DNA of 32,000 nt. Source: an uncultured Candidatus Saccharibacteria bacterium. Lineage in GTDB: Bacteria > Patescibacteriota > UBA1384 > JAMDBS01 > CAZXAY01. Of this stretch, positions 6,512-24,978 are shown piece by piece. Location of the stretch: contig CAZXAY010000002.1 in the NCBI GenBank assembly GCA_964638435.1, positions 15,661 to 47,660 of the forward strand, in the 5' to 3' direction. The notes under the pieces were generated by a model that worked only from the letters and a program-made list of their open reading frames with translations, was not told where the DNA came from and did no database searches. Numbering within the stretch: the first letter of the stretch is position 1; every line of letters begins with the position of its first letter. Position numbers and translations under genes: made by a program.

Positions 6512-6853
6512 ATGCCAAAACAAATTACTACAACTAAAGATAAAGAACCAAAGCAAAAAATCCGTATTAGATTAAAAGCTTATGATCATCGGCTAATTGA
6601 CAAGTCAACCAAAAAGATTTTGGAGACGACAACCAGAACGGGTGCACAAATTGTCGGGCCTATTCCACTCCCTACAGAAAAATCATCTATTACAGTGCTA
6701 AAATCCACTTTTGTTCATAAAGATGCGCGAGAACAATTTGAACAACTTATCCACAAACGCTTGATTGACGTTTTAGACCCAAATTCTAAAACTATCGACG
6801 CTCTAATGAATCTGGACCTACCTGCTGGTGTTTCTATCGAAATCAAGACCTAA
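6512..6853 (+). CDS. rpsJ: 30S ribosomal protein S10
   Basis: 113 aa with [15 protein letters not shown] and GPIPLPT motifs. Confidence 0.94.
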
Positions 6854-6877
6854 CGAATCAAACAAATTATCAAATAA

Positions 6878-6910
6878 GTTCAAAAACTGCCCAAAAGGCA
6901 GTTTTTGAAC
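6878..6910 (+). terminator. perfect 14-bp hairpin immediately after rpsJ
   Basis: gttcaaaaactgcc-caaaa-ggcagtttttgaac. The T-tract lies inside the descending arm. It separates rpsJ from the island. Confidence 0.55.
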
Positions 6911-6917
6911 GATACTA

Positions 6918-6946
6918 TTGACTTTTTTAGCATTATAGTGTATAAT
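6918..6946 (+). promoter_or_regulatory. near-consensus sigma70 promoter (TTGACT-17-TATAAT) for the RRM gene
   Basis: -35 at 6918-6923 and -10 at 6941-6946, preceded by TG. About 105 nt of leader follow, with a small GC stem (gcccg...cgggt) and a gtacc/ggtac hairpin next to the start codon. Confidence 0.6.
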
Positions 6947-7057
6947 ATATTTATACGGTTTGAAAGTACTCGTAATTAGCCAGTTGGTTAAGCCCGAGGA
7001 TATCAACCCGGGTCGATCAATTTTTGTATGGTACCTATAAAGGTACAAGGGAATAAA

Positions 7058-7327
7058 ATGGAAGAGAAAAATAAGCTATACGTAGGCAACCTACCTTACA
7101 GCGCAACAAGTGATTCTTTAAAAGAATTATTTGCTGGCTCAGGTGAAGTTGTCGACGCTGTAGTTATTTCAGACAAATTTTCTGGCCGTTCTAAAGGTTT
7201 TGGTTTCGTCACTATGAAAGATGACGCAGCTGCTGAAAAAGCCATTAAAGATACGGACGGAAAAGAAGTCGATGGACGCAATATTAAAGTTAATATTGCT
7301 CGTCCAATGCGTGAAAACAATCGTTAA
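7058..7327 (+). CDS. single-RRM RNA-binding protein (RNP-1/RNP-2 type)
   Basis: MEEKNKLYVGNLPY carries RNP-2 (LYVGNL) and KGFGFVTM is RNP-1. About 89 aa. The ATG at 7058 is preferred over the ORF-track ATG at 7028. Confidence 0.85.
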   Translation: MEEKNKLYVGNLPYSATSDSLKELFAGSGEVVDAVVISDKFSGRSKGFGFVTMKDDAAAEKAIKDTDGKEVDGRNIKVNIARPMRENNR

Positions 7328-7347
7328 TCGATAGTATAGCGCTAGAA

Positions 7348-7387
7348 AAAATCCCACTTCAAGCATTAAGCTAAAGGTGGGATTTTT
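7348..7387 (+). terminator. rho-independent terminator after the RRM gene
   Basis: A 10-bp stem aaaatcccac/gtgggatttt is followed by a T-run (7383-7387). Confidence 0.7.
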
Positions 7388-7437
7388 GTGTTGTTTATCC
7401 TGAGGAAACATATATCACTATTGGTGTCTTATTTGGG

Positions 7438-7466
7438 TTGACAAATATACTACATTAAAGTAAAGT
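7438..7466 (+). promoter_or_regulatory. putative promoter TTGACA-17-TAAAGT for the small ORF
   Basis: -35 at 7438-7443 and -10 at 7461-7466. A gttaaga/tcttaac hairpin (7470-7494) lies in the leader. Confidence 0.45.
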
Positions 7467-7530
7467 ATTGTTAAGAGATTTAACGCATCTTAACAAAAAA
7501 AGACTATTACAGATATAGGGAGGGATTATT

Positions 7531-7800
7531 ATGAGAAAGCATCCGAGAGGTCCTAAAGTCAGGTCAAATAGAAGTACCGTTAGCCCAGCATCAATTATGA
7601 AAGGAGGTGAAGACAACATGTGCGAACGTGGTTTTACACCTGCGATATTGACAATTCATCAACCAGGTGAATGCTTAATCTCGGAATCAACGGATTCTAC
7701 CTCGACATCTGACGATAGTCATCGCGAAATACCCGTTTTGATCCCGAGCACTCAGGAAGAGAGAGTCGGTGGCGACTATGGTCCTTCGGGAAATATATAG
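7531..7800 (+). CDS. small hypothetical protein (89 aa, or 60 aa from an internal start at 7618)
   Basis: SD gggaggg (7518-7524) precedes ATG 7531. A second strong SD aaaggaggtga (7600-7610) precedes the in-frame ATG at 7618. The N-terminal 29 aa are very basic and the rest is acidic and Ser/Thr-rich. G+C is visibly higher than in the ribosomal genes. No recognisable family. Confidence 0.45.
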   Translation: MRKHPRGPKVRSNRSTVSPASIMKGGEDNMCERGFTPAILTIHQPGECLISESTDSTSTSDDSHREIPVLIPSTQEERVGGDYGPSGNI

Positions 7801-7822
7801 AAATATTCGATTCTTACAAAAA

Positions 7823-7865
7823 GCGCCCTGAGCCTTCTGCACAATTGTGCTTAAAGCCCAGGGCG
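7823..7865. terminator. stem-loop between the convergent small ORF and the NTase gene (bidirectional terminator candidate)
   Basis: The outer stem is gcgccctg...cagggcg and encloses the perfect palindrome gcacaattgtgc. Confidence 0.5.
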
Positions 7866-7869
7866 TTCT

Positions 7870-9291
7870 TCATTTGTTTTGTTTATCATAAATTTGATTG
7901 CGTTGGCGGCAATTTTCAAGATATAACGACCACCAATTTTGCAAATCATTAATCAAAACTGGATTGCTTCGAAAATTACGTAGAGAGAACTCTGCAACTT
8001 CTTCATTTTCATCAAGTTTGAGCCAGGTAAAATCTGCATCATGAAGACGATATTCTTCTTTAAATATTCTAAATAACCATTTAAGAAGATTTTTCATCAT
8101 CCAGCGAGCAATACCTTCATCCTCCCCACGTTTTTCTATATTAATGAAAGGATACATTTTATGACAATTTTCTAACAAGTCAAAAATATTACGACACCTT
8201 CCATTGACACTTGAATGATGTTGAAAAACATAATTATACATTTCTATCTGTCTCATCTGATCAAGAAGATAATAAATTTTTTCTAACCTCTCGCAACAAT
8301 CTTCTTTATTAACTACGCGCACCACAAGCAAAAGAAATCTGATGCCCAAGAAGATTTGTAAGTTTTCTTTTTTGAGCAAAAATGAATTTGCCTTACCTTC
8401 ACTTACAAATTTAATCAATCTTTCTAGTGAACGCTCTTTAACAAATCGGTGACCTTTATGGGTAAAAGAATCTTTTCCATAAAGACCGTGGTCTGTTGCA
8501 CACGGCATGATTATTCCACTTTTTACAGATTCTTCGGCTTCTTTAGTATATATCAATCCTTTAGGACCCAATACACACTGATTCATTGTCACATCCCTAC
8601 TCGCTAAGACATGTAAGATATTTTTGTATAACTCTTTACCAGATTGATCTGTTTCGCCAACGAGTTGTAGAAATTTTACGCCAACTTCATCATCCTTTAC
8701 AAGGATATCGAAGTCACGAATTGGAATTTCTGGGGCGATTAAATCACTTTTAAAAAATGCTTTTAATACAAATCGTGCTGGTCCACCTTTATGCAATACC
8801 CCTTTAGCTAGAGGTATTTTTATTTGTAATTTCGATGATTCACAATAGATTAGCCAAATAATGTTTTCATCTCTAGCTATTGTCATCTCAGGGATAGTAT
8901 CTATAATTTGTTGAAGTGAGATAGAAAAAACATTAGATGGTAATATTAATTCTGGTTCAGGAAGACCATCTTTAATAATGTTTACCACATGAATAGCTGT
9001 GCGTGGAATGGAGCCATCTTTAATTTCAATTTCTCTTAGTGAATCCCAAATTAACGAAAAATATGTATTGATAAATTGCTGGACTTTGTAGTCAAAATCA
9101 GTTTTTCTGGATAACCTAACAAGAGCTGCGTAAAAAAGCATTCCCCATTTTTTTGGTTTTGCTTTGTTAACAATATTGATTAGATTATCATATAATTGTG
9201 AAAATTGTCTTAAGGCAACATCAGCTTTATCCGAAAAAATTCTACCACTGCTTACTATATATTTTTCAAGTCCTCTTGGATCTACCACCAT
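7870..9291 (-). CDS. divergent class-II (CCA-adding / poly(A) polymerase family)-like nucleotidyltransferase with an N-terminal extension
   Basis: Motif order is HKGGPARFVL...IRDFDILV (GGxxR...DxD, motif A-like) and then ASRDVTMNQ (RRDFTxNA, motif B-like). FVKERSLERLIKFVSE is a possible degenerate EDPLRxLRAxRF. The start is set at ATG 9291, 5 nt after SD ggaggtga. The ORF-track TTG at 9333 lies inside the promoter -10. Confidence 0.5.
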   Translation of the reverse strand: MVVDPRGLEKYIVSSGRIFSDKADVALRQFSQLYDNLINIVNKAKPKKWGMLFYAALVRLSRKTDFDYKVQQFINTYFSLIWDSLREIEIKDGSIPRTAIHVVNIIKDGLPEPELILPSNVFSISLQQIIDTIPEMTIARDENIIWLIYCESSKLQIKIPLAKGVLHKGGPARFVLKAFFKSDLIAPEIPIRDFDILVKDDEVGVKFLQLVGETDQSGKELYKNILHVLASRDVTMNQCVLGPKGLIYTKEAEESVKSGIIMPCATDHGLYGKDSFTHKGHRFVKERSLERLIKFVSEGKANSFLLKKENLQIFLGIRFLLLVVRVVNKEDCCERLEKIYYLLDQMRQIEMYNYVFQHHSSVNGRCRNIFDLLENCHKMYPFINIEKRGEDEGIARWMMKNLLKWLFRIFKEEYRLHDADFTWLKLDENEEVAEFSLRNFRSNPVLINDLQNWWSLYLENCRQRNQIYDKQNK

Positions 9292-9331
9292 AACTTTCAC
9301 CTCCAAATTGTTCAAGGACAAAGATGACTTC

Positions 9332-9360
9332 AATATAGCAATACACTAAGTGTATGTCAA
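9332..9360 (-). promoter_or_regulatory. consensus promoter (TTGACA-17-TATATT, minus strand) with an embedded palindromic operator-like site
   Basis: On the minus strand the -35 is at 9360-9355 and the -10 at 9337-9332. The spacer and -35 carry the perfect inverted repeat atacac-taa-gtgtat (9341-9355). Confidence 0.55.
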
Positions 9361-9400
9361 GAAAAAAATCCTTTTATTACCTACTGTGGATAAGCATCTA

Positions 9401-9428
9401 TTGACAAAATTATATTTAATGGTAGATT
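9401..9428 (+). promoter_or_regulatory. candidate promoter TTGACA-16-TAGATT for the 263-aa ORF
   Basis: -35 at 9401-9406 and -10 at 9423-9428. An alternative is TTGAAT-17-TATGGT at 9512-9540. Either choice leaves an AT-rich leader that contains an extra SD-like taggaggtg (~9553-9561). Confidence 0.3.
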
Positions 9429-9611
9429 AATATAGATAGGTATATAAGCTTATTGGTTATTTTACGAAAGCCATAGCCTATTTTTATTTGCATATTAAAA
9501 ATTGAATAAATTTGAATATGTGAGCAAAAACAGGTATGGTAAAATTGATAAATAGGAGGTGTTTTCTTTAAAAAAAGGTATTCTGATTCTAAATTTCAAA
9601 GGAGGAATGTT

Positions 9612-10403
9612 ATGGAATCAACCGAGAAAAATCCAATAGGAATTGCCTTCGGACTCAAAAATTCCAGACGTATGTTCTGGATCGAAACCACAGATACTGT
9701 TGAACAAGTCACCAGAGCCCTTATCAAGAGTGTTATCAAGGCAGCACCAGATGCTATAGCCCTTGGGTATGTCGGCGAAAAACCACGTGAGGCAATGCTG
9801 ACTGACCACGTGAAAGATCTGGTTCTCGTGATCGAGGTTGATAAGAAAAAACTCCACGATCTCCGAAGTGAATCCGACAAAAATCTGGAATTGGTAAGCC
9901 TAGTAGACCGCATTAACGCTTTCAAAGAAAGCGGTTGGCAGGCAGAATACTTTACCAGGTCAATGGCTGCAGTCCGCGGCTTTATCAAGACCGATCTTCT
10001 TAATCGTGTGGTTAACCGACGAGCTGTGGTCGATCGTGAAACTAAGATTCATGTCGGCTGGGCCTGGTTCAAAACACTTATCAACCACGCCAGCGAGATT
10101 CGCTGCCTGATCCTCAATGAACCCTTTGGCGCTACAGTGGAAAAAATCATGCCTGCTACTGAGAATAATGTGTCTCAACCGGTTATGGAAGATTCTTTGG
10201 TTTCCACAGAACCACCCATAGTTCAAATCGCATTCATCACCAAAGAAGTGTCTCAGTTGCCAAAACCTATGACCGAGCAAGTTCAGAAATCAGAAACGTT
10301 CGGTACACCACCAGTTAAAGCCAAGAGATCCAGCAAAAGGAAAAAGGTCGTCGAGGCTTCTCAGAATCAGGGCATCATTCAGGAAGTCGAAGTCGGAGCA
10401 TAG
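9612..10403 (+). CDS. hypothetical protein, compositionally foreign (higher G+C), with a basic disordered C-terminal tail
   Basis: SD aaaggagg (9598-9605) precedes ATG 9612. Codon usage (ATC, CTC, GAC, ACC, GTC) is unlike the AAA/ATT/TTA-rich host genes. The C-terminus PPVKAKRSSKRKKVV is Lys/Arg-rich. No family recognised. Confidence 0.6.
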   Translation: MESTEKNPIGIAFGLKNSRRMFWIETTDTVEQVTRALIKSVIKAAPDAIALGYVGEKPREAMLTDHVKDLVLVIEVDKKKLHDLRSESDKNLELVSLVDRINAFKESGWQAEYFTRSMAAVRGFIKTDLLNRVVNRRAVVDRETKIHVGWAWFKTLINHASEIRCLILNEPFGATVEKIMPATENNVSQPVMEDSLVSTEPPIVQIAFITKEVSQLPKPMTEQVQKSETFGTPPVKAKRSSKRKKVVEASQNQGIIQEVEVGA

Positions 10404-10428
10404 TCAGAATCCAAGCACCGAACATTCC

Positions 10429-10457
10429 GCCGTAGTTTTATAACTGCGGCTTTTTTA
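10429..10457 (+). terminator. rho-independent terminator after the 263-aa ORF
   Basis: gccgtagtt-ttat-aactgcggc (one G-U pair) is followed by tttttt (10451-10456). Confidence 0.7.
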
Positions 10458-10466
10458 TTAATAGTA

Positions 10467-10495
10467 TTGACAAGATAATAACTATTTGATAAACT
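10467..10495 (+). promoter_or_regulatory. promoter TTGACA-17-TAAACT re-starting the ribosomal operon at rplC
   Basis: -35 at 10467-10472 and -10 at 10490-10495. A ~110-nt leader carrying direct repeats tttagac x2 and acgatt x2 precedes rplC. Confidence 0.5.
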
Positions 10496-10609
10496 TAAAT
10501 TAGAAATCTTTAGACAATTTACGATTTCATGATAAGCCTAAAAAACGATTCACATAAGGTGGATTGGTTTTAGACTATATTTAATTGTAATGTAAATTTA
10601 GGACAAATT

Positions 10610-18251: not shown

Positions 18252-18285
18252 TTGATTAATTTATAATTTGACAGAAAGATATTTT

Positions 18286-18627
18286 ATGACAAACAATAAT
18301 GAAAAATTATTAAGACGAAAAAATAGGGTTAGATCAAAAATTTCTGGCACAAATAACAGGCCGCGTTTAAGTGTTTTTAGAAGTAACACTCGATTAGAAG
18401 TACAGTTAATTAATGATGAAACTTCTAAAACATTGCTAGCATTAACGGATGATAAGTCCATTAAAAAAACAAAAACCGAAAAGGCCACCGATCTAGGTAA
18501 GATTTTTGCAGAAAAATCAATTAAAGCTGGATATAAGTCTATTGTATTTGATAGACGTGGTAATAAGTATCATGGTCGTATTAAAGCTTTCGCTGATAGT
18601 GCCCGCAGTAGTGGTTTAATATTTTAA
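18286..18627 (+). CDS. rplR: 50S ribosomal protein L18
   Basis: RRKNRVRSKISGTNNRPRLSVFRSN motif. ATG 18286 is preferred over the ORF-track TTG at 18268. Confidence 0.92.
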   Translation: MTNNNEKLLRRKNRVRSKISGTNNRPRLSVFRSNTRLEVQLINDETSKTLLALTDDKSIKKTKTEKATDLGKIFAEKSIKAGYKSIVFDRRGNKYHGRIKAFADSARSSGLIF

Positions 18628-18642
18628 TATTAATTGTTCTAA

Positions 18643-18841
18643 GGGTCTGTCGCCGAATGTGCTTTGGGAATGAAAATTAATCACATTTGAGCGAAAACTT
18701 TAGTAGATGACGATGCCTATCAGGTGATAAGCAGAGGAATATAATGAAGTTTGTCCTTCGACAGGCTCAGGATGGTGAGCAAAGTCGAACCACAGCCAAA
18801 TGTGGTAATTTTCAGCCAAAATGATGTTTGGCGACAAACCC
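18643..18841 (+). mobile_element. MITE copy 1 (~199 bp) between rplR and rpsE, flanked by the 5-bp direct duplication tctaa
   Basis: The ends are gggtctgtcgcc...ggcgacaaaccc. The arms stay complementary for ~50 nt. tctaa occurs at 18638-18642 and again at 18842-18846. By eye it is ~90% identical to the copies at 19855 and 24130. Confidence 0.85.
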
Positions 18842-18854
18842 TCTAAAGGATATT

Positions 18855-19457
18855 ATGGAAAAAGAAAAAAAAGAATTTGAAGAAAGAGTAATAGAGATTA
18901 GCCGTGTTTCTCGTACCGTAAAAGGTGGGAGAAGGCTTAGATTCCGAGCACTTGTTGCTATTGGTAACCTAAATGGTAAAATTGGTATTGGTATTGGTAA
19001 AGCAAATGAGGTTGCCCAAGCTGTTCAAAAAGCTGTTAATAGAGCAAAAAAGAATATGATTAGTGTTACTATTACTAATAACACTATCCTTCATGAAGTA
19101 AAAATGCATTTTGGTGGTGCATATATATTTTTAAAGCCTGCTGCACCAGGAACATCCGTAATCGCTGGTAGTACAATTAGAACAGTTATTGAGCTTGCAG
19201 GTATAAAGAATATTCTTAGTAAAGCTCATGGATCATCAAATAAAATTAATAACGTAATGGCTACATTTCTCGCATTAGACAGCTTATCAAATAGAAGTGT
19301 TGGCCAAGACAAATATATTTCTAAATTGAAAGATAAAGCTGATTCTGATGAAAATATCGATAGTTCTTTAACAAAATCTGAATCAGGTGAAAATAAAAAA
19401 TCAACAAAATCTAATATATCTAAGGTAAAAAATGAAACTCAACGAGCTAAAAAATAA
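18855..19457 (+). CDS. rpsE: 30S ribosomal protein S5 (acidic/Lys-rich C-terminal extension)
   Basis: The start is set at [27 protein letters not shown] with SD aaagga (18845-18850). The ORF-track TTG at 18828 lies inside the MITE and is rejected. Confidence 0.93.
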
Positions 19458-19845
19458 TTTTTCTAAAGACTCTGGCAAAAGATTAGGCAGGGGCCACGGA
19501 AGTGGTAAAGGTAAAACAAGTGGCCGTGGTCATAAAGGTCAAAAAAGCCGAACTGGTTTTAATATCCCTAAAAGATTTGAAGGCGGTCAAACTTCCTTAA
19601 TCCAAAGGCTTCCCAAAGCCAGAGGAATCAAGAGCTTTATCAGCAAACCGGTGATTATTTCTTACCAGGTTTTACAACAAAAATTTGCTAGTGGTACGAT
19701 AATAAGTCCAAAAGTGCTTTTACTATCTGGTTTAGTTGATTCAATAAAACCAAGAGTTAAAATACTTGGACCATATATTGGTGATAAAACTTTTGTTATC
19801 AAAAATTGCCTAACCTCAAAATCTTACCCCAAAAAGACAAATTAA
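19432..19845 (+). CDS. rplO: 50S ribosomal protein L15
   Basis: [22 protein letters not shown] motif. It overlaps the rpsE 3' end by 26 nt, which leaves no room for rpmD (L30). Confidence 0.93.
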
Positions 19846-19854
19846 AACTTAATA

Positions 19855-20055
19855 GGGTCTGTCGCCGAATGTGCTTTGGGAATGAAAATTAATCATATTC
19901 GAGCGAAAACTTTAGTAAGCTACGATGCCTATCAGGTATGATAAGCAGAGAAGATTAATAAAGTTTGTCCTTCGACAGGCTCAGGATGGTGAGCAAAGTC
20001 GAACCACAGCCGAATATGGTAATTTTCAGCCAAAATGATGTTTGGCGACAGTCCC
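19855..20055 (+). mobile_element. MITE copy 2 (~201 bp) between rplO and secY, flanked by the 5-bp duplication taata
   Basis: The ends are gggtctgtcgcc...ggcgacagtccc. taata occurs at 19850-19854 and at 20056-20060. Confidence 0.85.
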
Positions 20056-20073
20056 TAATAGTTTAAGGATCAA

Positions 20074-21348
20074 ATGCAAACAAATATCTCAAAAATATTT
20101 AAATTACCAGACTTACGTAATAAAATATTGATTACGGTAATATTATTAGTAATCTTTAGACTATTTGCGAATATTCCTTTACCTGGCGTCAATATTGATG
20201 AATTAAAAGATTTTTTTAATAACAATCAATTTTTTGGCATGATGAATATGTTTTCTGGTGGTGCTATGAAAAACTTTTCTTTAGCCATGATGGGTGTAGG
20301 ACCATATATTACCTCATCAATAATCTTTCAACTATTAACAATGATTGTTCCATCACTCGAAAATTTATCTAAAGAAGGGGATACTGGTAGACAAAAAATT
20401 AATCAATATACTAGAATTGTAACCGTGCCTCTTGCCCTTGTCCAATCATTTGCAATGATATCTTTATTAAAAAGTCAAGGTATAATTTCTGGCTGGCATG
20501 GTTTAGAACTTTTTACAATGTTATCTGCTCTAACAGCTGGTACAATATTATTGATGTGGTTAGGAGAATTAATATCAGAAAAAGGTATTGGTAATGGCAT
20601 ATCTCTAATTATTACTATTGGAATAATCTCTTCTGTCCCACCAATGATATTACAAACAATTTACGGACGAGATTTGTCAGATATATCGCAAGTAATTAGC
20701 CTCTTGATCTTTGGCGCTTTGGCTATAATTGTTACAGGATTAATTGTCTGGTTTAATTATTCAGAAAGACAAATCCCCATAACTTATGCTAGGAGGGTAA
20801 GAGGCATTAACAGTGGAGGAGTTGATACTTATTTACCACTCAGAGTTACTATGGCCGGAGTTATTCCAATAATTTTTGCTTTGTCCATAATGATTTTTCC
20901 AGGAGTAATTGCCAAGTTTTTTCAAGAAGCTCGCAGTGTTTCTTTGGCCAACTCTGCCAAATGGGTTGAACAATTATTTCAAAACCAAACTTTTTATGGT
21001 ATTACTTACTTTGTTATGGTAGTATTATTTACATTCTTCTACACATCAGTAGTTTTTAAACCAGATCAGGTTTCTGAAAATCTACAAAAACGAAGTGGAT
21101 TTATCCCGGGTCTTCGTCCTGGTAAAGAAACATCTCAATATCTTGAGTTTGTAGTTAGTAGAATTACTTTACTGGGGGCAGTCTTTTTGGGCTTAATTGC
21201 AGTTATGCCATTTATCATACCAAAAATCACTGACATTAGTAATATGGTTCTAGGCGGCACGGGAATTTTAATTGTTGTATCGGTAATACTTGATACAATT
21301 AGACAAATAAAAGCCCAAATAATTATGCGAAATTATGATCATTATTAA
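20074..21348 (+). CDS. secY: preprotein translocase subunit SecY
   Basis: 424-aa polytopic membrane protein with the GVGPYITSSIIFQLL block, in the canonical position after rplO. Confidence 0.95.
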   Translation: MQTNISKIFKLPDLRNKILITVILLVIFRLFANIPLPGVNIDELKDFFNNNQFFGMMNMFSGGAMKNFSLAMMGVGPYITSSIIFQLLTMIVPSLENLSKEGDTGRQKINQYTRIVTVPLALVQSFAMISLLKSQGIISGWHGLELFTMLSALTAGTILLMWLGELISEKGIGNGISLIITIGIISSVPPMILQTIYGRDLSDISQVISLLIFGALAIIVTGLIVWFNYSERQIPITYARRVRGINSGGVDTYLPLRVTMAGVIPIIFALSIMIFPGVIAKFFQEARSVSLANSAKWVEQLFQNQTFYGITYFVMVVLFTFFYTSVVFKPDQVSENLQKRSGFIPGLRPGKETSQYLEFVVSRITLLGAVFLGLIAVMPFIIPKITDISNMVLGGTGILIVVSVILDTIRQIKAQIIMRNYDHY

Positions 21349-21417
21349 TCATATTTCTCGCATCAAATATTACCTCTAATTTATAAATGCATTTAATACT
21401 AATAATTTGGATATTTT

Positions 21418-22461
21418 ATGTCAAAATTACAACAAAACAAAAGTTTATTTAATTTAATGATTGTAGTTTTGGGAATAATAGCCATTGGTATATTATTTAC
21501 CACCAATGGAAGCAAACTCACAACAAAAACAACATCTAATTCTGACGACATCAGTCAAAATAATCAAAATCAAGGTGGCGGTGATCTAGATACTAAAAAA
21601 CTTGTTGAAACCATACCTACCCAAAAAATTTTATACAGTATAATAAATGATAAATATACTGATATTTATTCCTATGATTTTGTGACTAATAAACCATCAA
21701 AAGTTTTTACAGACAAAGATGAAGTTGATAAAATTAAAACTATATCATCTATAACAAATGAAGGTAAAGTGCTAGCGTTAATGAGCCAACCTGGACAAGA
21801 ATTTTCTGGCAAACTATATTTAATTAGAACCGATGGATCTGGTAAAAAAGAATTATTAATAGATGATTTTGCTAGTCCACAACCTGCTCAAATATCTCCA
21901 GATGGTAAAAAACTCTGTTATATATTGTTCTCTAATTCTGAGAAAGATTTTGGTTTTAAATTAATTGAGGCTGATAGTGATGGCTCTAACAAAAAACAAC
22001 TTACCACTGATACAACCAATATATCTCAACTAGGCTGGTCCCCTGATTCTAATAGTTTTGTATACATCAAAAGCAATAATAATGATATGTATAAAATTAA
22101 TATCACTACCTTAAAAGAAGAAAAAATTACGACTTTTAATGATGATCAATTACAAAGCTTTTCATGGAGTGAAATTGGAATTATTATTAGTAAATATCAA
22201 AAAGGAAATAATAATTTTAATAATGCCGAAATTTTTACTATTAATCTAACCGATAATTCTACTAAAAAAATTACTAGCAATTCACTTTACGATAATTTTG
22301 CTTATTACGATTCATTGGGTAATTTAGTATATTTGAGTCTTGATTATGATATTAAAGATGCCAATATACTTTATAAACAAGGGAAAATTCAACTATTATC
22401 CACAAATGGGATTACCAAAGAAGTTACTAACGCTAATCAAATATTAGGCTGGAAAAATTAA
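21418..22461 (+). CDS. membrane-anchored TolB-like (PD40 beta-propeller repeat) protein
   Basis: N-terminal TM LFNLMIVVLGIIAIGILFTT. Repeated ISPDGKKLCY and WSPDSNSFVY motifs are typical of PD40/WD40-like propeller blades. Confidence 0.55.
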   Translation: MSKLQQNKSLFNLMIVVLGIIAIGILFTTNGSKLTTKTTSNSDDISQNNQNQGGGDLDTKKLVETIPTQKILYSIINDKYTDIYSYDFVTNKPSKVFTDKDEVDKIKTISSITNEGKVLALMSQPGQEFSGKLYLIRTDGSGKKELLIDDFASPQPAQISPDGKKLCYILFSNSEKDFGFKLIEADSDGSNKKQLTTDTTNISQLGWSPDSNSFVYIKSNNNDMYKINITTLKEEKITTFNDDQLQSFSWSEIGIIISKYQKGNNNFNNAEIFTINLTDNSTKKITSNSLYDNFAYYDSLGNLVYLSLDYDIKDANILYKQGKIQLLSTNGITKEVTNANQILGWKN

Positions 22462-23138
22462 TGAAAGATTTTACTCTAATTATTTACGCCTTGCCAGGGG
22501 GAGGTAAAGGAACACAAGGTAAATACCTACGTGACAAATATAATGCAAATTACCTTTCAAGTGGCGATATAATAAGAAAACTCAAGGAAGAATCTAGCCC
22601 ATTGGGTAAAGAAATAAAAAATCGTTATAACAAAGGTATCCCCCAACCTGATAAAGTAATCATGGAAATTTTTGGTAATTCTATCAAAAAACTAGTTACC
22701 GATACGGCCAATAAAAAATTTGTTATTGATGGTTTTCCAAAAACTGCTAATCAAGCAGAGTTTTTAGACAAATTATCCGCTCAATTAAATATGGCAAATC
22801 CAATATTTATTTATTTAGATGTTGATGCTAGCTCCGTAATTAAAAGAATTTCTTCCAGACTATTTTGTCACGAATGTGGTGCAAGCTATTTGCCATTACA
22901 AAATGAATTTGTTGAAAAAAAATGTTTCAAATGTAATGGCTTACTGCAAATCCGCGATGATGATAAACCTGAGGTTGTAAAAACAAGAATTTTGGAAGAA
23001 AAAAAGAGAATAAAAACCTTACTTGAATATTATAAAAAAACCAACAGATTATTAATTATTGATGGTAAACCTGCAATTACTAAAGTCAACCAATTAATAA
23101 TTGATTCCTTAAGAAAAAATGGAATAATTAATGACTAA
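22461..23138 (+). CDS. adk: adenylate kinase (Cys4 zinc lid)
   Basis: P-loop LPGGGKGTQ. The lid carries CHECG...CFKCNG. Confidence 0.92.
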   Translation: MKDFTLIIYALPGGGKGTQGKYLRDKYNANYLSSGDIIRKLKEESSPLGKEIKNRYNKGIPQPDKVIMEIFGNSIKKLVTDTANKKFVIDGFPKTANQAEFLDKLSAQLNMANPIFIYLDVDASSVIKRISSRLFCHECGASYLPLQNEFVEKKCFKCNGLLQIRDDDKPEVVKTRILEEKKRIKTLLEYYKKTNRLLIIDGKPAITKVNQLIIDSLRKNGIIND

Positions 23139-23877
23139 TATAAAAACTTCTGATGAAATTATTATTATGGAAGAAGCCGGTAAAATACTAGCAGAAGTTT
23201 TTAAAAAAACTATCAAAGTTATTATACCCGGTATGACAAAACTAGAATTAGATACTATCATAGAAAAATTTATTATTGAATCTGGCGCAACCCCCTCATT
23301 TAAAAATTATAAAGGTTACAAATATTCTAGCTGTTTATCTGTTAATTCTGAAATTGTCCATGGAATGCCCAATAATGATGTTATCAATGACGGTGACATA
23401 TTAGGCATTGATATTGGAGTCAATTATAATGGTTATCATGCCGATTCTGCTATCACTGTTCCTATTGGAAAAGTTGATACAGTTGCGCAAGAATTAATTA
23501 ATGTAACTAAAAAATCGTTAGACTTGGCAATAAGTAAAATTAAACCAGGTGTGACAATAGGTCAAATTCAAAAAACTATACAAAATTTTGTAGAAAGTAA
23601 AAATTATTGCTTAGTTCGCAGTTATTCTGGACATGGCATTGGCAAAAATCTCCAAGAAGACCCAATTATTCCTAATTATTATGGATTAAATAACCATCTG
23701 ATTATCAAAGAAAATGCCGTTTTTTGTATTGAACCAATGGTTATAGTAGGAAAAAATCACCATGTTGCAGTTAAAAACGATGGTTGGACGGTAATTTCTG
23801 CTAGTGACCAGCTTGCTGCACATTTTGAGCATACTGTAGCTGTTACTAAAAAAAATTGTAAAGTATTGACTAAATAA
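23131..23877 (+). CDS. map: methionine aminopeptidase, type I
   Basis: 248 aa with metal-ligand context GIDIGVNYNGYHADSA, GHGIG and FCIEP...EHTV. Confidence 0.93.
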   Translation: MTNIKTSDEIIIMEEAGKILAEVFKKTIKVIIPGMTKLELDTIIEKFIIESGATPSFKNYKGYKYSSCLSVNSEIVHGMPNNDVINDGDILGIDIGVNYNGYHADSAITVPIGKVDTVAQELINVTKKSLDLAISKIKPGVTIGQIQKTIQNFVESKNYCLVRSYSGHGIGKNLQEDPIIPNYYGLNNHLIIKENAVFCIEPMVIVGKNHHVAVKNDGWTVISASDQLAAHFEHTVAVTKKNCKVLTK

Positions 23878-23910
23878 TAATCATATGATATTATATTTTT
23901 GTAAACACAA

Positions 23911-24123
23911 ATGACAAAAGATGTTATACAACAAGAAGGTATTGTGATTGAAGCATTACCTAATGCTCTATTTAAGGTTAAACTTGGAAATGAGCATGAG
24001 ATTCTTTGTCATATATCTGGCAAAATTAGAATGAATTTTATTAAAATTATGCCTGGAGATAAAGTTATTGTCGAGCTTACACCTTATGACTTATCTAAAG
24101 GCAGAATAACAAGAAGATTATAA
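23911..24123 (+). CDS. infA: translation initiation factor IF-1
   Basis: 70-aa S1-like OB protein with [16 protein letters not shown]...[18 protein letters not shown]. Confidence 0.95.
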
Positions 24124-24129
24124 TTATTA

Positions 24130-24331
24130 GGGTGCTGTCGCTGAATGTGCTTTTGAGATTAAAATTAGCCACATTCGAGCGAAAACTTTAGTAGATGACG
24201 ATGCCTATCAGGTATGATAAGCGGAGGAGACTAATAAAGTTTGTCCTTCGACAGGCTCAGGATGGTGAGCAAAGTCGAACCACAGGCAAATGTGGTAATT
24301 TTTAGCCAAAATGACGTTTGGCGACAGCACC
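24130..24331 (+). mobile_element. MITE copy 3 (~202 bp) between infA and rpmJ, flanked by atta (4 bp clear, 5th position ambiguous)
   Basis: The ends gggtgctgtcgc...gcgacagcacc carry paired changes that keep the terminal stem. atta occurs at 24126-24129 and at 24332-24335. Confidence 0.8.
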
Positions 24332-24345
24332 ATTAGAAAGTATTT

Positions 24346-24492
24346 ATGAATGTGGTAACACCGTCAGTTAAAAAAAGATGTGATAAATGTAAAATAATCA
24401 GAAGAAGTAAAAAAGGTAAAAGTTTTCATACTAAAAAACCTCGACTTTTTGTAAGATGCGAAAATAGACGACACAACCAAAGTCAAGGATAA
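24346..24492 (+). CDS. rpmJ: 50S ribosomal protein L36 (extended, 48 aa); not in the ORF track
   Basis: Hand translation: MNVVTPSVKKRCDKCKIIRRSKKGKSFHTKKPRLFVRCENRRHNQSQG. It has the L36 signature SVKK.C.KCK.IRR...V.CEN.RH.Q.QG with an ~11-aa internal insertion. Confidence 0.85.
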   Translation: MNVVTPSVKKRCDKCKIIRRSKKGKSFHTKKPRLFVRCENRRHNQSQG

Positions 24493-24496
24493 TATA

Positions 24497-24581
24497 ATTG
24501 TTAATTTGTTAAATGGTTAATTTGGGTTAGATATGATAGATAAATCAACTAGTTAACTAATTAATCAATCAACAAAGTAAC
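24497..24581 (+). promoter_or_regulatory. long imperfect GTTAAT / TTAAC hairpin spacer upstream of rpsM
   Basis: The 5' arm is attgttaatttgttaaatggttaatttggg and the 3' arm is aaatcaactagttaactaattaatcaatcaacaaagtaac. It shares two 10-11-mers with the rplN-rplX spacer, in the same order and at the same distance from the ATG. Confidence 0.55.
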
Positions 24582-24591
24582 TGGGGTTAAA

Positions 24592-24978
24592 ATGGCAAGA
24601 TTAATGGGATTAAATATTCCAGATAATAAAAGAATAGTGATTAGCTTAACCTACATTTATGGTATCGGCAATTCTAGCGCTCAAAAAATAATTGCCCAGT
24701 CTGGTATCGATCCAAATAGACGTACTAATAGTTTAACTAATCCGGAACTTGATAAACTCAGAGAAGTTATAGAAAAAAATCTTAAGGTGGAGGGCGACTT
24801 AAGAATGTTAGTAAATCAAAATGTTAAAAGATTAAAAGAAATTAATTCTTATAGAGGAGTTAGACATTTAAAAAAATTACCAGCTAGAGGTCAAAGAACA
24901 AAAACAAACGCACGCACCAAAAGAGGTAAGAAAGTCTGTGTTGGTAGTGGACGCCGGGACACCTCACAAAAAACATAA
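24592..24978 (+). CDS. rpsM: 30S ribosomal protein S13
   Basis: MARLMGLNIPDNKR start and YRGVRH motif. Confidence 0.95.
   Translation: MARLMGLNIPDNKRIVISLTYIYGIGNSSAQKIIAQSGIDPNRRTNSLTNPELDKLREVIEKNLKVEGDLRMLVNQNVKRLKEINSYRGVRHLKKLPARGQRTKTNARTKRGKKVCVGSGRRDTSQKT

Follow-up and report, generated by a model that had tools for sequence, protein, structure and literature searches.

Three copies of a probable miniature inverted-repeat transposable element with a nested 39-nt module in the ribosomal-protein operon of a CPR bacterium

Introduction

The spc/alpha ribosomal-protein operon of the window, by which is meant the whole 32,000-nucleotide stretch of DNA analysed here, contains three closely similar sequences of about 200 nt, and the question that they raise is whether they are mobile DNA or conserved RNA leaders of the genes that follow them. 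The best explanation, to which we assign a probability of about 0.8, is that a non-autonomous DNA transposon (MITE) of a CPR bacterium is present here in three copies. The preliminary description of this DNA had likewise taken them for a MITE, and that part of its account stands; what it had not seen is that a 39-nt module in its own right, found across phyla, makes up the invariant centre of the element.

Host and operon context

The SecY encoded in the window is 100% identical to ACD_58C00241G0001 from an uncultured bacterium, and its nearest named homologues, at ~62-63% identity, are from Patescibacteria and Berkelbacteria. Given these homologues, the host is assigned on sequence similarity to the CPR, in a lineage (contig ACD_58C00241) near Berkelbacteria. 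The genes for S5 and L15 overlap by 26 nt (19432-19457), and the L30 gene is absent between them; loss of L30 is typical of CPR bacteria. Between secY and adk lies a gene for a 347-aa TolB/PD40-like β-propeller protein (21418-22461), with Tricorn_2nd/PD40 matches and weak TolB matches (NCBIfam), whose position is kept in all relatives fetched. The S10 operon is broken by ~3.7 kb (6853-10600) between rpsJ and the likely rplC, the latter recognized by position only. This interruption contains an RRM_1 RNA-binding protein gene (7028-7327) and, on the opposite strand, a 487-aa ORF (7870-9333), and between these convergent genes there is a G+C-rich palindrome (7819-7870), probably a terminator.

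Structure of the three copies

Three direct copies of 199-201 nt are present on the + strand (Table 1), with pairwise identities of 92.6, 88.6, and 88.6%, and nhmmer detects no fourth in the window. Copies 1 and 2 start with GGGTCTGTCGCC and copy 3 with GGTGCTGTCGC, and the 3' ends are the inverted complement; the earlier report of three ~90% identical sequences with such ends is therefore borne out. In every copy the two arms are complementary over ~48 nt, imperfectly, with mismatches and 1-nt indels (fold, arm alignment), in good agreement with the ~50 nt first claimed. A terminal inverted repeat (TIR) pattern derived from both arms has 6 matches in the window, compared with 0 in 100 shuffles.

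Each copy is bracketed by 5-mers that form an exact direct repeat (TCTAA/TCTAA, TAATA/TAATA, and ATTAG/ATTAG), as expected of target-site duplications (TSDs). The tctaa and taata repeats had been read in this way before; for copy 3 a 4-bp atta had been given, which becomes a regular 5-bp ATTAG once the start of the copy is set at 24131. Given the base composition, a 5/5 match has a chance probability of 0.0018 per site and of 6e-9 for the three sites together.

The junctions that hold the copies are L18|S5, L15|SecY, and IF-1|L36, and the gene assignments originally made at these sites (rplR|rpsE, rplO|secY, infA|rpmJ) are confirmed by Pfam and NCBIfam. Each copy sits between the stop codon of the preceding gene and the Shine-Dalgarno sequence of the next; in the case of copy 1, its 3' end is followed by 5 nt and then by the AGGA Shine-Dalgarno of rpsE. 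The internal ORFs of copies 1-3 do not exceed 45 aa, and the copies contain no transposase gene. The G+C content, ~33% over the window, is locally ~0.38-0.41 at each copy.

Table 1. Positions of the element copies, their flanking repeats, and their internal parts in the window
Feature	Position	Strand	Remarks
TSD left, copy 1	18638..18642	.	TCTAA, identical to 18842-18846; single related pentamer in the L081 empty site
MITE copy 1, 199 nt	18643..18841	+	between rplR (18268-18627) and rpsE (18855-19457)
Left TIR, copy 1, ~48-50 nt	18643..18692	+	pairs with 18794-18841 (fold, arm alignment)
Nested 39-nt module, copy 1	18754..18792	+	TCC-TTCGAC-AG-GCTCA-GGATGG-TGAGC-AAA-GTCGAA-CCA
Right TIR, copy 1	18794..18841	+	fold, TIR pattern, arm alignment
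TSD right, copy 1	18842..18846	.	TCTAA
TSD left, copy 2	19850..19854	.	TAATA
MITE copy 2, 201 nt	19855..20055	+	between rplO (19432-19845; TIGR01071) and secY (20074-21348)
Nested 39-nt module, copy 2	19968..20006	+	
TSD right, copy 2	20056..20060	.	TAATA
TSD left, copy 3	24126..24130	.	ATTAG
MITE copy 3, 201 nt	24131..24331	+	between infA (23911-24123) and rpmJ (24346-24492)
Nested 39-nt module, copy 3	24244..24282	+	
TSD right, copy 3	24332..24336	.	ATTAG

Empty sites in related operons

The operons used for comparison are those of L081 (SecY identity 94%), L080 (86%), L082/L083 (71%), and L084/L085 (72%); the contig of L081 stops before infA and thus covers L18|S5 and L15|SecY only. In these four relatives' operons (L080-L085; SecY 71-94%), 0 inserts are found at the junctions covered, and the gaps at L18|S5 and L15|SecY amount to 0-37 nt. 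L080, L082, and L084 are without the insert at infA|rpmJ; in them IF-1 is directly followed by L36, the flank being too diverged for a single-copy target to be recognized. At the other two junctions, the window without the element and without one repeat matches the empty site of L081, with the single targets TCTAA~ATCAA at L18|S5 and TAATA~TAAATA at L15|SecY. Orthologous junctions, proposed at the outset as the place to confirm the duplications, thus prove to be without the insert in relatives and, at L18|S5 and L15|SecY, to have a single-copy target in L081. The three operon insertions are recent.

Structured RNA or mobile DNA

On the + strand, a copy is predicted to fold into a ~45-bp closing helix with a three-way junction, at a minimum free energy of -78.7 kcal/mol (z=-8.2), and 6 pairs show compensatory changes among the three copies. 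Such a fold is what would be anticipated if the sequences were not mobile DNA but conserved cis-regulatory RNA leaders or other structured RNAs of the ribosomal-protein operon, engaged in autoregulation or processing, and it is in line with this idea that all three lie in sense orientation directly 5' of a ribosome-binding site. The reverse strand, however, folds at -69.5 kcal/mol with an equal z-score (-8.19), as any inverted repeat would; the stronger energy of the + strand is due to several conserved G-U pairs. These G-U pairs, which favour the + strand, together with the sense orientation of all three copies (3/3), hint at some strand-specific selection, to which the antisense copy L089, described below, is a counter-case. 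Searches for known RNAs did not add to the case for a leader: Rfam gives 0 matches at gathering scores over the whole window, and at E<=10 over 18400-24600 only two chance-level hits, of which mir-885 (E=0.22) overlaps copy 2 in antisense, and the tRNA/tmRNA scan finds none. Moreover, relatives whose SecY is as much as 94% identical do not have the sequences at these junctions, exact TSDs flank the copies, and copies occur at unrelated loci, antisense to their neighbours. The leader reading is thus largely refuted by the empty sites, the TSDs, and the unrelated loci, and we consider it extremely improbable.

The transposon reading, in preference to a regulatory leader, is accordingly the one supported by exact TSDs, by empty sites in relatives, and by copies elsewhere. 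The length of 199-201 nt lies within the range of MITEs, roughly 50-500 bp, and because of the empty sites and the copies at other loci the three sequences have the attributes of a MITE and a vertically conserved leader is excluded. The general designation of the three operon copies as a MITE is one in which we have very high confidence.

Within the operon, copies 1 and 2 give no match in the terminator scan and copy 3 contains a single weak consensus match with a 6-bp stem, and the regional count of 5, compared with 3.2 expected, is not above that of shuffles. Since the scan finds nothing beyond that weak match in copy 3, read-through transcription is expected on this prediction, with the long hairpin becoming part of the operon mRNA. 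There, each copy would fold into the ~45-bp hairpin that closes the three-way junction, and it would be the want of a predicted terminator hairpin of the expected kind, together with an intact ribosome-binding site, that lets the operon be read through and the copies persist. In these respects the element is similar to Correia (Neisseria), ERIC/IRU, and RUP/BOX, which are inverted-repeat elements of ~100-200 bp that lie inside operons, are co-transcribed, and form long RNA hairpins; it differs from Correia, ERIC, and RUP in its ends and TSDs (TA for Correia) and belongs to an unrelated sequence family. Some Correia/ERIC-type elements are RNase III or stability sites, and by analogy the mRNA hairpin of each copy could serve as such a site.

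Further copies and elements with shared ends

When metagenome contigs were scanned for the TIR pattern, 8 loci were recovered, and among these are copies beyond the three operon loci, as anticipated in the preliminary description. L089 is a further full copy on another contig of the same aquifer dataset (AMFJ01...), with a degenerate right tip, and is antisense to both flanking genes; L092, from the same dataset, is a copy cut by a contig end. L090, also a contig-end copy in this dataset, is the copy-2 locus itself, and the assembly breaks inside copy 2 both in L090 and in the Logan contig carrying the same secY. Solo TIRs of the same dataset are found at L086:582-623 (AMFJ01025041; starting GGGGTCTGTCGCC) and L087:5888-5923 (AMFJ01024997). 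These are a left and a right TIR, respectively, without an element body; in L086, the TIR runs over the stop codon and the 3' end of an oppositely oriented 548-aa lamin-tail-domain ORF. The match at L093 looks like a chance or partial hit of the TIR pattern and was rejected as a copy.

Variants of the window MITE are present in two other metagenomes (L091, L088). L091 is a copy with its own TSD, GTAAC, so that all four complete TSDs are 5 bp long, three of them 80-100% A+T and GTAAC 60%. L088:48-230 (Ga0075122_10057452) is an element of ~170 nt that has the ~38-nt TIRs in common (GACTGTCGCCAAATGTGCTTTTG...GAAAATTA) and an unrelated interior; judged by its ends, it appears to be a second MITE subfamily using the same putative transposase as the window MITE. 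The claim of a new family holds as far as tested, with no match in Rfam, PLSDB plasmids, GenBank phages, or IMG/VR. The full-length parent that had been envisaged did not turn up: no autonomous element with the same ends was detected, none of the 8 metagenome TIR loci adjoins a transposase gene, and the TIR pattern has 0 loci in IMG/VR.

Possible transposase families

A DDE transposase acting in trans would bind the inverted repeats and cut the target with a 5-bp stagger, the landing sites being short AT-rich spacers that run from a stop codon to the next Shine-Dalgarno sequence. The Tn3 family is the most likely source of such a transposase, and the element would then be TIME-like. TIMEs (262 bp) and IS101 (209 bp) have 38-bp inverted repeats (IRs), duplicate 5-6 bp of AT-rich DNA, and are thought to carry res sites (PMC4133298). 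The window element shares with them its non-coding nature, a size of 200-260 bp, long terminal IRs starting with GGGG, occurrence in several copies, 5-bp (sometimes 6-bp) duplications of AT-rich targets, and, presumably, mobilisation in trans (PMC4133298). It differs in having IRs of ~48 nt instead of 38 nt, which align to Tn3 only in part, in its CPR host as opposed to Pseudomonas or an enterobacterial plasmid, in that a cognate Tn3-family transposon was not found, and in having three copies within 5.7 kb and a nested REP-like module.

The ends themselves were aligned to a query that we take to be the Tn3 IR; this string is present in >5000 plasmids, and in plasmid NTP16 it is found 94 nt past blaTEM. 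Of the outer 11 nt of the left TIR of copy 1, 10 positions match this IR, and when the terminal G of L086 is included, 11/12 outer nucleotides are identical. The alignment of the left TIR reaches z=4.7-5.1 and is equalled by 0-1 of 2000 shuffles, and the GAAAA and TCAC blocks recur with their order kept; the alignment of the right TIR is weak (z=2.5-3.0). The TIR is also ~10 nt longer than the canonical 38 bp and has TTTGAG at its inner end, compared with TAAG in the Tn3 family. Tn3-family elements exhibit target immunity, and for this reason three copies within 5.7 kb fit a Tn3 origin poorly. Taken from these end sequences, a Tn3-family (TIME-like) origin of the MITE is about an even bet.

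The excess length of the TIR, the weakly Tn3-like right arm, the three insertions within 5.7 kb, which argue against Tn3-type immunity, and the failure to find a Tn3 transposase at the metagenome TIR loci or in IMG/VR (no PF01526, Tn3-type transposase, gene occurs in the loci fetched) could all be accommodated if the MITE were derived from another DDE family that makes ~5-bp duplications, such as IS21, IS481, IS701/IS1634, or Tn7/Tn402-like elements. The ends of these families are TG/TGT...ACA/CA or other motifs, not GGGG. That 11 of the 12 outer nucleotides agree with Tn3, and that the GAAAA and TCAC blocks come in the right order, speaks against such a derivation, as does the AT-rich 5-bp target, which is TIME-like (PMC4133298); a non-Tn3 DDE origin is thus unlikely, albeit to be reckoned with.

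Far less probable is that the ~200-nt element as a whole moves as single-stranded DNA by an IS200/IS605-type or RAYT HUH transposase, in the manner of PATEs or REPINs. Its long hairpin, the REP-like module inside it, the common orientation of the three window copies along a co-directional operon, and the lack of a DDE parent among the loci found would suit such a route. Elements of the HUH 'peel-and-paste' kind leave their target unduplicated and integrate beside a fixed tetra- or pentanucleotide. By contrast, each copy here has a different, exact 5-bp duplication, and the conserved ends are long TIRs starting GGG(G), as in DDE elements.

The nested 39-nt module: distribution, gain, and loss

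Outside this lineage, the element has matches only at its positions ~113-154. A 22-nt core of this region, CGACAGGCTCAGGATGGTGAGC, has 57 exact matches in GTDB species representatives from ~15 phylum-level groups, which include, by record titles, Omnitrophota, Zixibacteria, Planctomycetes, Opitutaceae, Nitrospirales, Ignavibacteria, Elusimicrobia, Saccharibacteria, Woesebacteria, other Patescibacteria, Thermodesulfobacteriota, Actinomycetota, FCPU426, and Syntrophorhabdus and other 'Deltaproteobacteria'. A degenerate form of the core is found at 21 IMG/VR loci; the exact 22-nt core is absent from IMG/VR, and neither PLSDB plasmids nor GenBank phages contain the 39-nt module. Among the three window copies, 0/39 columns of the module vary, compared with 32/161 in the rest of the element (p=0.001) and with 19/91 in the TIRs.

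Several loci differ by the presence or absence of the module. L091, 98% identical to window copy 2, is without exactly 39 nt (TCCTTCGACAGGCTCAGGATGGTGAGCAAAGTCGAACCA), and the borders are unambiguous (TTTG^CAGCC), with no duplication; since the module is present in every copy that is more diverged, the most parsimonious view is that L091 has precisely lost the 39 nt. In the MnmG of Omnitrophota L043, the module forms an exact in-frame insert of 13 residues that is missing in 9 homologues of 74-78% identity, its DNA borders in mnmG being ambiguous owing to a 5-nt AAGGA repeat (read by eye). A Zixibacteria repeat, L041, has a net module-like insert of +39 nt relative to its sister L040 (hand count), and the phase-0 translation of the module within a HAD-like ORF of Planctomycetes is SFDRLRMVSEVEP. 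In its behaviour the nested module is a discrete unit, with precise gain and loss and without target duplication.

With respect to co-directional flanking genes, the module lies in the same orientation in 11 cases and in the opposite one in 5, and no strand rule emerges. When 568 ORFs from 78 loci were clustered, no recurrent neighbour gene was found within 8 kb of the module, the largest cluster comprising 4 loci; a RAYT gene, being single-copy, need not lie so near. Two IMG/VR contigs contain module variants in series: six copies in L066:861-5705, four of them identical with a 5-nt loop (TGGCC), and three in L065:3248-4104, mostly between co-directional genes. In addition, lineage-specific composite repeats with GTAG...CTAC ends (REP-like) have a three-way junction from which the module projects as a side arm, as in the window MITE; these occur in Zixibacteria/Ignavibacteria (L021, L026, L030, L039, L040, L041, L044, L051) and in an Opitutaceae MAG (L004, L011, L013, L017, L019, L034, L045).

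Anatomy of the module

The module has the layout x3'x2'x1'-TTCGAC-NN-GCTCA-x1x2x3 y1y2y3-TGAGC-NNN-GTCGAA-y3'y2'y1', in which each 3-nt end can pair with one half of the loop. In a set of 53 distinct modules, pairing is seen in 97.5% and 100% of cases for the two 3-bp end/loop helices, with double changes at every pair, and there are 81 compensatory cells compared with 21.8±3.3 in shuffles. The pairing falls to 24-41% when the partners are slid, and a fourth end/loop pair is weaker (72-77%). The 11-bp bulged stem is invariant and thus carries no covariation information, and changes at position 5 of TTCGAC are uncompensated. There are also half-units, in which a variable stem of 3-4 bp encloses a conserved block of 13-14 nt; they are found alone or in tandem. 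The end/loop pairings and the long hairpin would be sterically incompatible in one molecule, and circularisation of the 39-mer would create a junction exactly complementary to its own loop.

A number of known arrangements were considered for the module and set aside. A 6-bp TSD was rejected, as only 3-4 nt per side match the loop complement; a pseudoknot between the loop and the 3' tail was rejected on steric grounds, as there would be no linker across the 11-bp stem; and a tRNA D-arm/T-loop, a CsrA site, CIRCE, attC, and dif were dropped because of no match or a variable loop.

The invariant centre might alternatively be the functional core of the MITE itself, that is, a res-like or tyrosine-recombinase site with a 13-bp arm, a 6-bp spacer, and a 14-bp arm, in which case a shared recombinase site, and not mobility of the 39-mer, would account for the matches in other phyla. 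The 13-6-14 architecture with invariant arms and a variable spacer fits this proposal, as does the lower variability of the module than of the TIRs, and the res sites attributed to TIMEs and IS101 (PMC4133298) provide a precedent. A fixed site leaves unexplained, however, the exact 39 nt inserted in frame in MnmG and lost from L091; the 3-nt ends covary with the loop, half-units exist alone and in tandem, and the 8 kb around the modules contain no recurrent recombinase gene. We consider such a recombination core rather doubtful.

Nearest known classes and a possible mechanism of mobility

No description of the module was found in the literature searched by DNA string, peptide, and topic. REPs are imperfect palindromes of 20-40 nt with short tails that are known from several phyla and sometimes lie in genes or in other palindromes, and CGTC-tagged REPs have no dedicated transposase (PMC3733652). 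The module resembles REPs and REPINs in being a short palindrome (39 nt) with dispersed copies that are intergenic, sometimes in frame in genes, and sometimes nested, the tails of REPs being unpaired and often CCA (PMC3733652). The differences are that GTAG and CGTC tags are missing from the module, the termini being variable triplets (TCC/CCA, CCG/GGA, and others); that its stem is invariant over ~15 phylum-level groups, whereas REP families are mostly lineage-specific; that each 3-nt terminus is complementary to one half of its own loop; and that half-units with a 3-bp stem and a conserved loop of 13-14 nt exist. Since neither tag is present, the module is outside the GTAG and CGTC REP superfamilies, and REPs are the closest described class. 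In L009, L010, and L014 (Nitrospirales, uncultured bacterium), palindromes of the type GTCATTCC...GGAATGAC are located ~100 nt or less from the module; they resemble CGTC-tagged REPs, and families of short palindromes seem to cluster or nest together.

Rickettsia palindromic elements (RPEs) are likewise palindromic insertions tolerated in frame in housekeeping genes, as the module is in MnmG. RPEs are nevertheless confined to Rickettsia and Wolbachia, RPE-1 is longer, and their sequences are unlike the module; RPE-4 and RPE-6 are CGTC-tagged (PMC3733652).

In the MITE, the nested palindrome would form one arm of the three-way junction, REP-like in character. Given that the module is gained and lost precisely and without target duplication, a single-strand, HUH/RAYT-like mobilisation by a putative enzyme is suggested. 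Taken further, the module could be a cross-phylum 'nano-transposon' that undergoes precise single-strand excision and insertion of 39 nt (13 codons), with self-guided ends of the HUH type and a widely shared enzyme. Instead of a fixed tag, pairing of each 3-nt terminus with one half of the loop in the same unit would then set the cleavage ends of the module ('peel and paste'), and its near-invariance, in diverged MITE copies as in ~15 phylum-level groups, would reflect recognition of the bulged TTCGAC-nn-GCTCA stem by the shared enzyme. We put this extended scheme forward tentatively and think it, on balance, unlikely.

Implications

MITEs are scarcely described for CPR/Patescibacteria, and in the literature searched a single paper couples the two terms, in passing. 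Insertions in the S10-spc-alpha operon, together with clean empty sites in sister lineages, amount to a natural experiment on the tolerance of structured 'junk' in the most constrained operon of a minimal genome, and the MITE insertions are strain-level markers for these populations.

The 39-nt module is perhaps of more importance than the MITE itself. Peptides such as SFDRLRMVSEVEP, WFDxAHHPEPVEG, LRQAQDGERSRT, and similar ones litter the hypothetical-protein annotations of MAGs. The module accounts for this class of junk peptides and can split real genes in frame, and the covariation between its ends and its loop points to a previously uncharacterised mechanism of mobilisation.
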